The translations under genes and the position numbers were made by a program. From a virus (lineage: Duplodnaviria > Heunggongvirae > Uroviricota > Caudoviricetes), in IMG/VR virus record IMGVR_UViG_2529293040_000016: 16,688 nucleotides of DNA; one strand, 5' to 3'. The notes under the pieces are model-generated. The model saw only the letters and a list, made by a program, of their open reading frames with translations, ran no database searches and was not told the origin of the DNA. Shown piece after piece: positions 7,919 to 16,610 of this stretch; within the stretch, counting starts at the first letter, position 1, and every line of letters begins with the position of its first letter.

Positions 7919-8413
7919 ATGGGAATAACTAAAGAACGATTGTTGGAAATAGCAAACCTTAGTGATTGGGCATTAAGTGATGAGAGAATTGTTTCTCCTC
8001 ATGCTTATGAGTCAGTTACAAGTATAGAAATAACAACAATGGCTAGAATGCTGCTTGGTTATTTCAAAATAGAAAATAAAAAACAGATGGATAGTAATGT
8101 TGATATATGTGAGATTTTAGACGATTGGGGGGCTTGGGTTGTGGCTGGTAATAGTTCTATTGATTGGCAGGAAATAGCTGATAAATATAAAAATGTTGTT
8201 CCTCATGGTAAAAAATCACGTCGTCAGTGCAGCAATGATGAAGGGCGAATTATTGACATTAGTATCCTTAGGTTAGAAAGATATAAGCAACAAGAATATG
8301 AGTTAATTGTTGCTCATTTCGTGATTGGTTTATCTCTTCGTGCTATTGCAAAGCAACAAGGATGTTCAGATGGAACAATTCGTAAAAGATTGCAAAAAGC
8401 CTTAGGTTTTTGA
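7919..8413 (+). CDS. HTH regulator with sigma-70 region-4 / LuxR-like C-terminal helix-turn-helix (164 aa), encoded in the low-GC island
   Basis: Track ORF 7907..8413; the ATG at 7919 has GGAG 6 nt upstream. C-terminus ...EYELIVAHFVIGLSLRAIAKQQGCSDGTIRKRLQKALGF resembles sigma region 4 / LuxR HTH. Markedly AT-rich. Convergent with the three-gene cassette. Confidence 0.65.
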   Translation: MGITKERLLEIANLSDWALSDERIVSPHAYESVTSIEITTMARMLLGYFKIENKKQMDSNVDICEILDDWGAWVVAGNSSIDWQEIADKYKNVVPHGKKSRRQCSNDEGRIIDISILRLERYKQQEYELIVAHFVIGLSLRAIAKQQGCSDGTIRKRLQKALGF

Positions 8414-12595: not shown

Positions 12596-12955
12596 ATGCT
12601 CATAGATTTGGTTTTACCTTACCCGCCGACGGTGAACACTTACTGGCGACGCCGTGGCAGCACATATTTTGTATCAAAAGTCGGTGAGCGTTATCGCCGT
12701 GATGTGGCGCTTATTGTTCGCCAGCAGCAACTGAAATTAAACCTGTCCGGAAGGCCGGCAATAGAAATTATTGCAGAGCCACCGGATAAGCGCCGTCGTG
12801 ACCTGGACAATATCCTGAAGGCACCACTGGATGTACTGACGCATGCGGGGCTGCTCATAGACGACGAGCAGTTTGATGAAATTAATATTGTGCGCGGTCA
12901 GCTTGTTCCTGGTGGGCGGTTGGGGATAAAAATCACAGAACTGGAGTATGCATGA
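12596..12955 (+). CDS. rusA: Holliday-junction resolvase RusA
   Basis: 119 aa. Conserved RusA signatures read by eye (N-terminal LPYPPTVNTYW, catalytic region PDKRRRDLDN, C-terminal GGRLGIKITE) align with E. coli RusA from memory. AGAGGTG SD. Stop overlaps the Q start as ATGA. Confidence 0.85.
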   Translation: MLIDLVLPYPPTVNTYWRRRGSTYFVSKVGERYRRDVALIVRQQQLKLNLSGRPAIEIIAEPPDKRRRDLDNILKAPLDVLTHAGLLIDDEQFDEINIVRGQLVPGGRLGIKITELEYA

Positions 12956-13641
12956 ATAACCAGTATTTACAGTTTGTTCGTGAGCAACTCATGATTGCCA
13001 CCGCCGATTTGAGTGGATCAACAAAAGGGCAGCTTGAGGCCTGGCAGGAGAATGCCATGTTTGATACAGGGCGTTACAGGCGTAAAAAAATCCGGTACCG
13101 CGATGAAGTGACTGGAAAAATGATAACGCGGGATAATCCACCAATCCCGGGAAAGCAATCGCTGGCGAAGGGGGCGTCAATTCCTCTCGTCAGTCCGGTT
13201 GAGTTTTTGACATCATCGTGGCGGCGGGCTGTTCTGTCTCTTGAAGAACATCATAAAGCCTGGTTGTTGTGGTGTTACAGCGGGAGTATTTGTTGGGAAT
13301 ATCAGATCGCGATAACACAGTGGGCGTGGAATGAATTTAATACTCAATCCGGTACCAGAAAAATTGCTGGGAAAACGCAGGAACGCCTGAAAAAATTAAT
13401 CTGGCTGGCGGCGCAGGCAGTAAAAGCAGAACTTTTTGGTGGGGAAGGTTATGAATATCAGGAGCTGGCATTACTGGCGGGAGTGACAACTAAAAACTGG
13501 TCCAAAACATTTACTCGTCACTGGGTTGCAATGAAACACATTTTTCACCGACTGGATAGTGAGGCTTTATTATTTGTAATGAGAACACGTTCAAAACAAA
13601 AGGCGGCATTTTCAAAGCAAAGTGTTGCAAAAGTAGATTGA
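12952..13641 (+). CDS. Late-gene antiterminator Q-like protein (229 aa)
   Basis: Track ORF immediately followed by a pR'-like promoter and strong intrinsic terminator, and preceded by rusA, which is the canonical nin-Q-pR'-tR' arrangement. Assignment is mainly by context. Confidence 0.65.
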   Translation: MNNQYLQFVREQLMIATADLSGSTKGQLEAWQENAMFDTGRYRRKKIRYRDEVTGKMITRDNPPIPGKQSLAKGASIPLVSPVEFLTSSWRRAVLSLEEHHKAWLLWCYSGSICWEYQIAITQWAWNEFNTQSGTRKIAGKTQERLKKLIWLAAQAVKAELFGGEGYEYQELALLAGVTTKNWSKTFTRHWVAMKHIFHRLDSEALLFVMRTRSKQKAAFSKQSVAKVD

Positions 13642-13653: not shown

Positions 13654-13706
13654 TCATGCAAATCTGATATTTTGCCGATTTTGTACGTGATGGCAAAATC
13701 AAACAA

Positions 13707-13731
13707 AACCCGCCCACAAGCGGGTTTTTTT
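13707..13731 (+). terminator. tR'-like rho-independent terminator
   Basis: Stem CCCGC (13709-13713) / GCGGG (13720-13724) with a 6-nt loop, followed by TTTTTTT (13725-13731). Confidence 0.75.
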
Positions 13732-13857
13732 GTGCCACTTATCTCGGATAGACATGGTGAATGCGCTGGTGGAGGAGATAAGGGTGATTTTTGTATGCTT
13801 GCAAGTAACCGGCTCATTTAAACCGTCTGGTCTGTTTCCTCCGGCTCTACAAAAATA

Positions 13858-14533
13858 ATGTCCATCATTTTTAATGGACACTATCGTATGAAACACCGGA
13901 CCTGGATCACTGAAGCTTTACGTCTTCACTTTGAAGAACATTTACCCCGGGTTGTGGCCGGGCGTCGCCTGGGTGTACCAAAATCAACAGTTTGTAGTAT
14001 GTTCGTGCGCTTTCGGAGAGCTGGCCTTTCGTGGCCTTTGCCCGCAGGCATGTCGGAGCAGGAACTTGATGCCTGCCTTTACGGACAATTTTCCACGGTA
14101 CCAGTCGTACGTCCTGAAAGCACCGTTATATCCGAAGCCCCCGTGGTAAAAACGTCCCCGGCGGCCCAACTTCCCTTATGAGTTTAAAATCGCCTTAGTG
14201 GAGCAGTCACTGCAGCCCGGAGCCTGTGTGGCGCAGATCGCCCGGGAAAACGGAATCAACGATAACCTGCTCTTCAACTGGCGCCATCAATACCGGAAAG
14301 GTGGCCTGCTGCCTTCCGGAAAAAATATGCCGGCACTGCTTCCCGTGACGTTAACGCCGGAGCCGGATAATAAAATCCCGGCCCCCGCACAGGAACCAGA
14401 GCAGATAAATACACCGTCCGACAGTCTGTGTTGTGAGCTGGTTCTGCCGGCCGGAACTCTCAGGCTTAAAGGTAAACTGACGCCGGCGTTATTACAGACA
14501 CTTATCCGCGAAATAAAAGGGAGCAGCCACTGA
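13858..14533 (+). CDS. tnpA: IS66-family tnpA, split between two frames (13858..14181 and 14150..14533)
   Basis: The downstream frame carries the conserved TnpA core (RRPNFPYEFK...PGACVAQIARENGINDNLLFNWRHQY) but has a TAA immediately upstream of it. The upstream 107-aa ORF (HTH-like) ends 30 nt later in the +1-offset frame. The overlap contains AAAAA and CCCC runs. Confidence 0.5.
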
Positions 14534-14880
14534 TGATATCTCTCCCTGCAGGTTCGCGTATCTGGCTGGTTGCAGGTATCACCGATATGCGAAATGGCTT
14601 TAACGGCCTGGCATCAAAAGTTCAGAACGTCCTGAAGGATGACCCGTTCTCCGGACACCTGTTCATCTTCCGCGGACGCCGGGGTGACCAGATAAAAGTG
14701 TTGTGGGCTGACAGTGACGGACTGTGCCTCTTCACCAAACGCCTGGAGCGGGGCCGCTTCGTCTGGCCAGTCACCCGTGACGGCAAGGTGCACCTTACTC
14801 CGGCTCAGTTATCCATGCTTCTTGAAGGTATCAACTGGAAGCACCCGAAACGAACGGAACGCGCTGGAATCCGCATATAA
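14533..14880 (+). CDS. tnpB: IS66-family TnpB (Orf2, 115 aa)
   Basis: Sequence MISLPAGSRIWLVAGITDMRNGFNGLASKVQNVL...FRGRRGDQIKVLWADSDGLCLFTKRLERGRFVWP is the characteristic IS66 Orf2 signature. Start overlaps the tnpA stop as TGATG. Confidence 0.85.
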   Translation: MISLPAGSRIWLVAGITDMRNGFNGLASKVQNVLKDDPFSGHLFIFRGRRGDQIKVLWADSDGLCLFTKRLERGRFVWPVTRDGKVHLTPAQLSMLLEGINWKHPKRTERAGIRI

Positions 14881-14899
14881 CCCGTTGTAAAGTGAGGAT

Positions 14900-16471
14900 A
14901 TGGACACCTCACTTGCTCATGAGAACGCCCGCCTGCGGGCACTGTTGCAGACGCAACAGGACACCATCCGCCAGATGGCTGAATACAACCGCCTGCTCTC
15001 ACAGCGGGTGGCGGCTTATGCTTCCGAAATCAACCGGCTGAAGGCGCTGGTTGCGAAACTGCAACGTATGCAGTTCGGTAAAAGCTCAGAAAAACTTCGT
15101 GCAAAAACCGAACGGCAGATACAGGAAGCACAGGAGCGAATCAGCGCACTTCAGGAAGAAATGGCGGAAACGCTGGGTGAGCAATATGACCCGGTACTGC
15201 CATCCGCCCTGCGCCAGTCTTCAGCCCGTAAACCGTTACCGGCCTCACTTCCCCGTGAAACCCGGGTTATCCGGCCGGAAGAGGAATGCTGTCCTGCCTG
15301 TGGTGGTGAACTCAGTTCTCTGGGATGTGATGTGTCAGAGCAACTGGAGCTTATCAGCAGCGCCTTTAAGGTTATCGAAACACAACGTCCGAAACAGGCC
15401 TGTTGCCGGTGCGACCATATCGTGCAGGCACCAGTACCTTCAAAACCCATTGCACGCAGTTATGCCGGAGCGGGGCTTCTGGCCCATGTTGTCACCGGGA
15501 AATATGCAGACCATCTGCCGTTATACCGCCAGTCAGAAATATACCGTCGTCAGGGCGTGGAGCTGAGCCGTGCCACACTGGGGCGCTGGACAGGTGCTGT
15601 TGCTGAACTGCTGGAGCCGCTGTATGACGTCCTGCGCCAGTATGTGCTGATGCCCGGTAAAGTCCATGCTGATGATATCCCCGTCCCGGTCCAGGAGCCG
15701 GGCAGCGGTAAAACCCGGACAGCCCGGCTGTGGGTCTACGTCCGTGATGACCGTAACGCCGGTTCACAGATGCCCCCGGCGGTCTGGTTCGCGTACAGTC
15801 CGGACCGGAAAGGTATCCATCCACAAAATCACCTGGCCGGTTACAGCGGTGTGCTTCAGGCCGATGCTTACGGTGGTTACCGGGCGTTATACGAATCCGG
15901 CAGAATAACGGAAGCCGCGTGTATGGCTCATGCCCGGAGAAAAATCCACGATGTGCATGCAAGAGCGCCCACCTACATCACCACGGAAGCCCTGCAGCGT
16001 ATCGGTGAACTGTATGCCATCGAGGCAGAGGTCCGGTGCTGTTCAGCAGAACAGCGTCTGGCGGCAAGAAAAGCCAGAGCCGCGCCACTGATGCAGTCAC
16101 TGTATGACTGGATACAGCAACAGATGAAAACACTGTCGCGTCACTCAGATACGGCAAAAGCGTTCGCATACCTGCTGAAACAGTGGGATGCACTGAACGT
16201 GTACTGCAGTAATGGCTGGGTGGAAATCGACAACAACATCGCAGAGAACGCCTTACGGGGAGTGGCCGTAGGCCGGAAAAACTGGATGTTCGCGGGTTCC
16301 GACAGCGGTGGTGAACATGCGGCGGTGTTGTACTCGCTGATCGGCACATGCCGTCTGAACAATGTGGAGCCAGAAAAGTGGCTGCGTTACGTCATTGAAC
16401 ATATCCAGGACTGGCCGGCAAACCGGGTACGCGATCTGTTGCCCTGGAAAGTTGATCTGAGCTCTCAGTAA
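14900..16471 (+). CDS. tnpC: IS66-family transposase TnpC (523 aa)
   Basis: N-terminal leucine-zipper-like coiled coil, Cys4 zinc finger (CPACGG...CCRCDH), and a long catalytic region typical of IS66 transposases. GTGAGG SD upstream. Confidence 0.85.
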
Positions 16472-16610
16472 ATATCAATACGGTTCTGACGAGTCGCTTA
16501 CGATAAATGCACCGGCATCATCATAAAAAGTGAGCCAGCCAAATGGAAGGTATCGTTAAACTCACCGGTAGTGTCAGTGGGTCGTCTGAGATGCCTGCAT
16601 GAGTTATCAG

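Follow-up and report, generated by a model that had tools for sequence, protein, structure and literature searches.

A full-length ISCro1 copy in an E. coli prophage contig, with a split tnpA gene that probably reflects an under-called homopolymer

The window analyzed here, 16688 nt in length, is the entire contig AIFA01000004.1 of draft assembly GCA_000249155.2. Toward its right end, beside prophage genes, lie four consecutive open reading frames (ORFs) on the plus strand: 13858-14181 (107 aa), 14198-14533 (111 aa), 14533-14880 (115 aa), and 14900-16471 (523 aa). NCBI names link the 107-aa protein to E. coli DEC1D. Pfam and NCBIfam place the last three ORFs with tnpA, tnpB, and tnpC of an insertion sequence, and a preliminary description had read the first two as a tnpA gene broken by a frame change. 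The locus therefore raises the question of whether these two ORFs really belong to one gene and, if they do, whether the break is a property of the element or of the assembly in which it was recorded.

Positions 13805-16501 hold a full-length copy of ISCro1, a member of the IS66 family with the genes tnpA, tnpB, and tnpC. The identification is based on RefSeq annotation together with Pfam and NCBIfam matches. A megablast search with positions 13700-16600 as the query against 5426 complete E. coli genomes returned thousands of copies in this species, and in these genomes RefSeq labels the copies "IS66-like element ISCro1 family transposase," plus tnpA and tnpB. When compared with RefSeq-annotated copies of ISCro1, 2697 of 2699 nt were identical, the intact element being 2699 bp long and that of the window 2697 bp; this near-identity is at the level of an isoform and refers to RefSeq-labelled copies, not to the ISfinder type sequence. 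In the alignment with the reference copy at L001:602-3300, a run of five A residues (A5) in place of seven (A7) was the sole difference over 2697 nt. ISCro1, whose name comes from Citrobacter rodentium and which is common across E. coli, is an already known insertion sequence, and the copy here is an ordinary one. Like other copies, it carries tnpA, tnpB, and tnpC in this order between the ends GTAACC.../...GCTTAC and encodes the same TnpB and TnpC proteins, but it differs from them in having A5 rather than A7 in tnpA as recorded and in being without an 8-bp target duplication.

The three genes lie on the same strand, and each matches family models (PF01527 and NF038385 for tnpA, PF05717 and NF033819 for tnpB, PF03050 and NF033517 for tnpC), which bears out the earlier assignment to IS66. 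The view that tnpB and tnpC are intact also held. tnpB (14533-14880, plus strand) encodes 115 aa and matches PF05717 with an E value of 4.7e-40, while tnpC (14900-16471, plus strand) encodes an IS66-family DDE transposase of 523 aa, as named in RefSeq, which matches PF03050 with an E value of 3.7e-103 and in Pfam also has LZ, zinc-finger, and C-terminal domains. The start codon of tnpB overlaps the stop codon of tnpA in the ATGA-type arrangement (TGATGA) found in IS66 elements: 14528-14539 reads CAC TGA TGA TAT, with the tnpA stop at 14531-14533 and the tnpB ATG at 14533-14535, an overlap that would be the basis of translational coupling between the two genes.

The ends of the element are confirmed as 13805 and 16501, and the support for them is independent of the inverted repeat. 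The left terminal inverted repeat, which begins GTAACCGG, occupies 13805-13832 on the plus strand, and the right one, which ends ...GTCGCTTAC, occupies 16474-16501 on the minus strand. Matching the left repeat to the reverse complement of the right gave 17/25 and 18/28 identical positions, and thus reproduced the count of about 18 in 28 from which a provisional left end at 13805 had been proposed; in the IS66 family, too, the inverted repeats at the termini are imperfect, span about 20-30 bp, and start with GTAA. That left end proved correct. Copies in other E. coli genomes start at query positions 104-106, equivalent to 13803-13805 of the window, and many of them end at query position 2802, equivalent to 16501. 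The flanks of two reference copies, L001 and L002, diverge from the window directly 5' of GTAACCGG. Homology to E2348/69, an enteropathogenic strain (EPEC) and the closest finished genome, breaks after 13804 and is back from 16502. Finally, perfect 8-bp target duplications bracket the reference copies (GATAAACA in L001 and CTACAGAG in L002), abutting GTAACC...GCTTAC and giving the same right-end base as in the window element.

The frame change lies within tnpA. Its 5' part, the 107-aa ORF at 13858-14181 on the plus strand, is identical to the reference gene up to the A-run and comprises TnpA residues 1-98, followed by a nine-residue out-of-frame tail (TSPAAQLPL) and a TGA at 14179-14181. The site of the change is the A5 run at 14148-14152 (plus strand): positions 14145-14154 read GGTAAAAACG in the window and GGTAAAAAAACG in the reference, where A7 stands in GTA AAA AAA CGT. 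As seen in a homopolymer census, this A7 is the sole 7-nt homopolymer in ISCro1. The 3' part of the gene (14153-14533, plus strand) encodes reference residues 100-225, which include the HTH_Tnp_1 domain (PF01527, E = 5.7e-10) and the C-terminal region. The adjacent frame in which it lies contains KRPRRPNFPYEFK...NLLFNWRHQY and is closed on its 5' side by a TAA at 14147-14149; the longest ORF with a start codon in it is the 111-aa one that runs from GTG 14198 to 14533, and no Shine-Dalgarno-like sequence was found 5' of that GTG.

The 107-aa and 111-aa ORFs are halves of one gene, and the 190-position model NF038385 spans both. The intact 225-aa TnpA covers positions 1-189 of the model (296 bits), the 107-aa ORF positions 1-80, and the 111-aa ORF positions 99-189; the deposited sequence encodes the two halves in place of the intact protein. 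In these respects the reference alignment agrees with the preliminary description, which had placed the 107-aa ORF in the adjacent frame with its stop at 14179-14181 and had taken tnpA for a single gene interrupted by a frame change in the stretch that holds the A-run. Some details have to be amended. An in-frame TAA does precede the conserved core, but it lies three codons (K-R-P) rather than two before RRPNFP. A TnpA of 225 aa is indeed the intact length, but the ancestral difference is one of 2 nt (A7 to A5), not the single base that had been proposed, although with one base deleted at the split the two parts would likewise be in frame, as a protein of 224 aa. The statement that the 107-aa ORF contains a helix-turn-helix is plausible rather than demonstrated, as this ORF matched no Pfam family significantly and gave weak matches only, to HTH_23 (E = 0.083) and Sigma70_r4 (E = 0.093).

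In the sequence comparisons, a single fused tnpA is the norm. The two RefSeq ISCro1 copies that we opened each have an undivided tnpA of 678 nt, whose product is the 225-aa protein WP_001339397.1, and this exact protein is present on 968 contigs. A protein search recovered full-length relatives of 205-229 aa, with 56-70% identity, from Salmonella, Pantoea, Erwinia, Serratia, Yersinia, Klebsiella, Edwardsiella, and others, and in DNA from species-representative genomes (53-66% identity) the domain junction falls inside one open frame in every relative. We give almost no credence to a normal arrangement of two separate genes, a small upstream ORF and a tnpA starting at GTG 14198, a case that had been named beforehand as one that would overturn the split-gene reading. 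Other IS66 subgroups do have a short TnpA of about 113 aa, and model NF047595 matches the C-terminal half only, but the single 678-nt gene of RefSeq ISCro1, the 968 contigs with the 225-aa protein, the span of NF038385 over both halves, and the fused state of all relatives inspected speak against it. Alignment to reference elements, suggested earlier as a check and carried out here with RefSeq ISCro1 copies, fixes both ends (13805 and 16501) and an intact tnpA product of 225 aa.

The organization of the element is also that of IS679 and other IS66 members with a long two-domain TnpA. These share the three-ORF organization, the stop-start overlap of tnpA and tnpB, and a TnpA, about 205-229 aa long, in which the HTH_Tnp_1 domain is preceded by an N-terminal extension. 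The three-ORF organization of IS679 was reportedly set out by Han et al. in 2001. Two further observations were made among the relatives. A contig labelled "MAG: Clostridiales bacterium" (L007, SFGJ01000083.1) has the complete ISCro1 length of 2699 bp and a near-identical 225-aa TnpA, and is probably enterobacterial DNA that was mis-binned into the metagenome-assembled genome. Pantoea stewartii ATCC 8199 (NZ_CP046558 and its plasmids; L010-L086) has undergone a large expansion of related IS66-family elements, with more than 70 loci that encode relatives of the two-domain TnpA of IS66 type; these belong to several subtypes (57-66% identity), and in some of the elements the open frames are shortened.

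A break at an A-run may also bring to mind a programmed event. In the reference, GTA AAA AAA CGT puts the heptamer A_AAA_AAA in the zero frame, in the canonical X_XXY_YYZ register, and the -1 frame reaches a stop nine codons on, exactly at the boundary of the two TnpA domains. The zero-frame heptamer and the nearby -1 stop are shared with the A_AAA_AAA/G type of -1 frameshifting known from dnaX and from the IS1 and IS3 families. The A-run might accordingly be a recoding site, at which a -1 ribosomal or transcriptional slip would yield a 108-aa N-terminal-only regulator, with dnaX gamma and IS911 OrfA as models for such a product, and which the A5 of the window would hard-wire. Unlike those systems, however, ISCro1 has neither conservation of the motif nor a stimulatory structure, and its zero frame already gives the full protein. 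Relatives at 53-70% identity have RK, SR, AE, YR, or HK at the position of the A-run, and in those at 53-66% identity the A-runs around the junction reach 2-4 nt at most, in a single open frame. VVKK is kept in the TnpA of two relatives at about 90% (P0046 and P0054); among the relatives inspected, A7 itself is confined to ISCro1 and a 92% relative from Citrobacter. The RNA downstream of the tract, in which a stimulatory structure was sought, had a minimum free energy of -20.1 kcal/mol, compared with a mean of -25.4 for shuffled sequence (z = +1.71), and is therefore less stable than shuffled sequence. Moreover, A5 is no slippery heptamer in the register that would restore the frame, and a passage on the IS66 family in a published review describes its proteins as expressed via translational coupling, without translational frameshifting (PMC3469429, citing Han et al. 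2001). We rejected programmed frameshifting on the grounds of its non-conservation in relatives and of downstream RNA folding no better than shuffled, and we regard it as extremely improbable.

The remainder of the contig offers a more ordinary explanation. Over 13.8 kb, the flanking prophage differs from that of the finished E2348/69 genome by 45 substitution blocks and 4 indels, and all four indels are 1-nt contractions of T-runs in the window, at 1366, 4843, 8406, and 9935. Three of the four split coding sequences that are intact in E2348/69, namely, an exonuclease gene of 2.47 kb (7-2477, recorded as 7-1347 and 1326-2477), a 139-aa hypothetical, and a 363-aa hypothetical; the contraction at 8406 alters the C terminus of a second Q-family antiterminator. 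Relative to E2348/69, 2/8 of the 7-nt runs and 1/28 of the 6-nt runs are contracted, and there were no expansions. The four T-run contractions are probably base-calling errors. Replication slippage in a living genome also favors long homopolymers, so the dependence on run length does not separate an artefact from a mutation.

Other ISCro1 copies in the same assembly behave in a similar way. Two more are present in GCA_000249155.2, on contig 52 (AIFA01000052.1, L095) and contig 35 (AIFA01000035.1, L100); both have A6 and zero mismatches to the window copy, and one differs at another A-run as well (AAAA versus AAA at 14889). The three copies of this genome differ in homopolymer length only, and none of them has A7, the length recorded nearly everywhere else. 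DEC1B-named proteins that cluster with the window product also correspond to A6 (...VVKNVPG, P0011), and P0011 is the only A6 product among the truncated TnpA clusters. The remaining clusters (100% identity at about 52% coverage; P0068, P0077, P0138, and others) were considered as A-run variants and rejected, because they reflect duplications or disruptions elsewhere.

We then asked how often the run departs from A7 beyond this assembly. The exact A5 stretch was found at none of 4385 places in the 5426 complete E. coli genomes. A6 occurs in ten complete-genome records, and in the one that we opened, MBT-5, PGAP marks tnpA as "frameshifted." An 80-nt variant in three finished genomes, in which C4 is followed by A5, was considered as a natural A5 lineage, but this was rejected: the copies in question have 11-19 indels per 2.7 kb, frameshifts are flagged in all three of their genes, and they look like assembly noise. 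Across the loci L095, L100, L094, L098, and L099, A6 was present in two other drafts besides this assembly, and A8 in Logan assembly SRR21973105. The tnpA A-run is a hotspot of length miscalls or mutations. It is very unlikely, in our judgment, that A5, A6, and A8 are real phase variation of IS activity, with the A7 tract acting as a contingency or recoding site (through ribosomal or transcriptional slippage, or reversible mutation) that would toggle between the full TnpA and an N-terminal regulator of about 107 aa.

Our preferred explanation is that tnpA appears split because a homopolymer was under-called in the draft assembly, a technical rather than a biological cause, and we consider this probable. 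It is favored by the unchanged state of the rest of the element, as further changes would be expected in a pseudo-element undergoing decay. It is also favored by the other indels of the contig, which are all gene-breaking homopolymer contractions, and by the copies of the same assembly, which have A6 and are otherwise free of mismatches. Some points stand against it. The contractions elsewhere in the contig are of 1 nt, smaller than an under-call of 2 nt. A5 was also recorded in three independent assemblies: in the window contig, in AIEY01000031.1, and in a Logan contig from SRR11867891. The copy in AIEY01000031.1 has A5 and a tnpC full of G/C-run differences, and is consistent with a low-quality consensus over repeats. 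This copy (L005, 7043-8636), from the same accession series as the window contig, lies beside a Tn5-like transposase near rdgC and close to the contig end, and its tnpC is broken into three ORFs by those differences. The A5 copy of SRR11867891 lies at afaF, a locus at which the matches in 21 complete genomes span 2 nt more, as A7 predicts; the ISCro1 at the afa locus of ST131 has been described (PMC8764528).

The main competing explanation is that A5 is a real 2-nt slippage deletion, which would make tnpA a pseudogene with a 107-aa N-terminal fragment and the copy non-autonomous. The three independent assemblies with A5 count in its favor, as do the A6 of the 10 finished-genome records and the A8 of the Logan assembly, which suggest that the tract may be truly mutable. 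Nevertheless, we think it unlikely: elsewhere the element does not differ from the consensus, and the same kind of gene-breaking homopolymer contraction occurs four more times in the contig. In addition, all three copies of this genome are contracted, and unequally so (A5, A6, and A6), which would require several independent hits without any other substitution.

If A5 were real, the C-terminal half of TnpA, without a ribosome-binding site, would be poorly translated. The TGATGA overlap of tnpA and tnpB is present in the sequence, and tnpB would lose its translational coupling and would probably be expressed at a lower level, since its ATG overlaps the tnpA stop and IS66 elements are said to rely on such coupling. 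Mutating any of the three IS679 ORFs is said to have abolished transposition in the work of Han et al. from 2001. The copy would then be predicted to be mobile only with TnpA supplied in trans from intact copies, a non-autonomous ISCro1 and still a routine one. The earlier suggestion that this copy may be immobile for want of an intact tnpA is not supported here, as the evidence points to a homopolymer under-call.

In ISCro1, TnpA is an accessory protein of 225 aa, in which a C-terminal HTH_Tnp_1 domain follows an N-terminal domain with weak, sub-threshold HTH matches only. The only 7-base homopolymer of the element, A7 in GTA AAA AAA CGT, stands as A5 in the deposited sequence; reading then enters the -1 frame and meets a stop nine codons on, and tnpA appears as two ORFs. 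Under the preferred reading, the physical element would have an intact tnpA and would be an ordinary, potentially active copy of ISCro1, an element that normally makes 8-bp target duplications. The case falls in the same class as the IS pseudogenes annotated as frameshifted in draft and long-read assemblies, with no difference of substance; some finished records likewise contain copies with numerous homopolymer indels.

The window copy itself has no 8-bp target-site duplication: the left flank at 13797-13804 (GCTTGCAA), 3' of a phage Q antiterminator gene, is not repeated in the right flank at 16502-16509 (GATAAATG), which lies within the last 25 nt of a prophage DUF6645/SASA-esterase gene. 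This absence reflects a deletion or a chimeric join and not a lack of membership in IS66 or ISCro1. The Q gene is lambdoid and occupies 12952-13641 (PF06323), with the element about 160 bp downstream. The prophage is syntenic with the ompW-adjacent prophage of E2348/69, in which the order is Q, tRNA-Ile, tRNA-Arg, ISEc13, the DUF6645/SASA esterase gene, and holin. Between the two IS junctions of the window, about 4.15 kb of E2348/69 (L003 15309-19458, containing tRNA-Ile, tRNA-Arg, ISEc13, and the esterase gene) is missing. This could be due to an IS-mediated adjacent deletion, to recombination between two ISCro1 copies, or to a chimeric or collapsed assembly join. In the last case, the left junction of one ISCro1 copy could have been joined to the right junction of another, and the other junctions of two collapsed copies would be GCTTAC followed by GCTTGCAACATTG and GGAGATAAATG followed by GTAACCGG. 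Neither IS junction was found in any other complete E. coli genome searched. The right flank is 187 bp long, to the contig end; its top hits joined the IS with the holin region, and it was considered as a ydfR/DUF1327 remnant, but this was rejected, as the piece joined to the IS is the 3' terminus of the SASA/DUF6645 esterase gene, which precedes the holin. A hit that shared 33 nt of the left flank (H6) was a spurious extension from an unrelated yhiM-pco context.

Two other features of the prophage were observed. At 13703-13732, about 65 nt 3' of the Q gene and about 75 nt 5' of the IS, a GC-rich hairpin is followed by a T run (aaaacccgcccacaagcgggttttttt), which resembles an intrinsic terminator and occupies the place of a tR'-type terminator in lambdoid phages. 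The IS accordingly sits in the leader of the late operon and would come between the lysis genes and transcription that depends on Q. Within the exonuclease gene, 2328-2442 carries about 24 substitutions relative to E2348/69, mostly 3 nt apart, compared to about 20 scattered differences over the rest of the 13.8 kb; the stretch looks like a small recombination patch with changes mostly at third codon positions.

The analysis shows which element is present, where exactly it begins and ends, and what kind of change has occurred at which site, whereas the technical origin of that change is inferred; the practical lesson is one for curation. Neither in tnpA nor in the four prophage genes should the frameshifts of this contig be taken as pseudogenization without read support, and the Q-IS-holin junction, having no target duplication, is not a proven deletion. 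The biological weight of the split tnpA is small: this is a well-known insertion sequence whose apparent pseudogene is most likely a homopolymer error.
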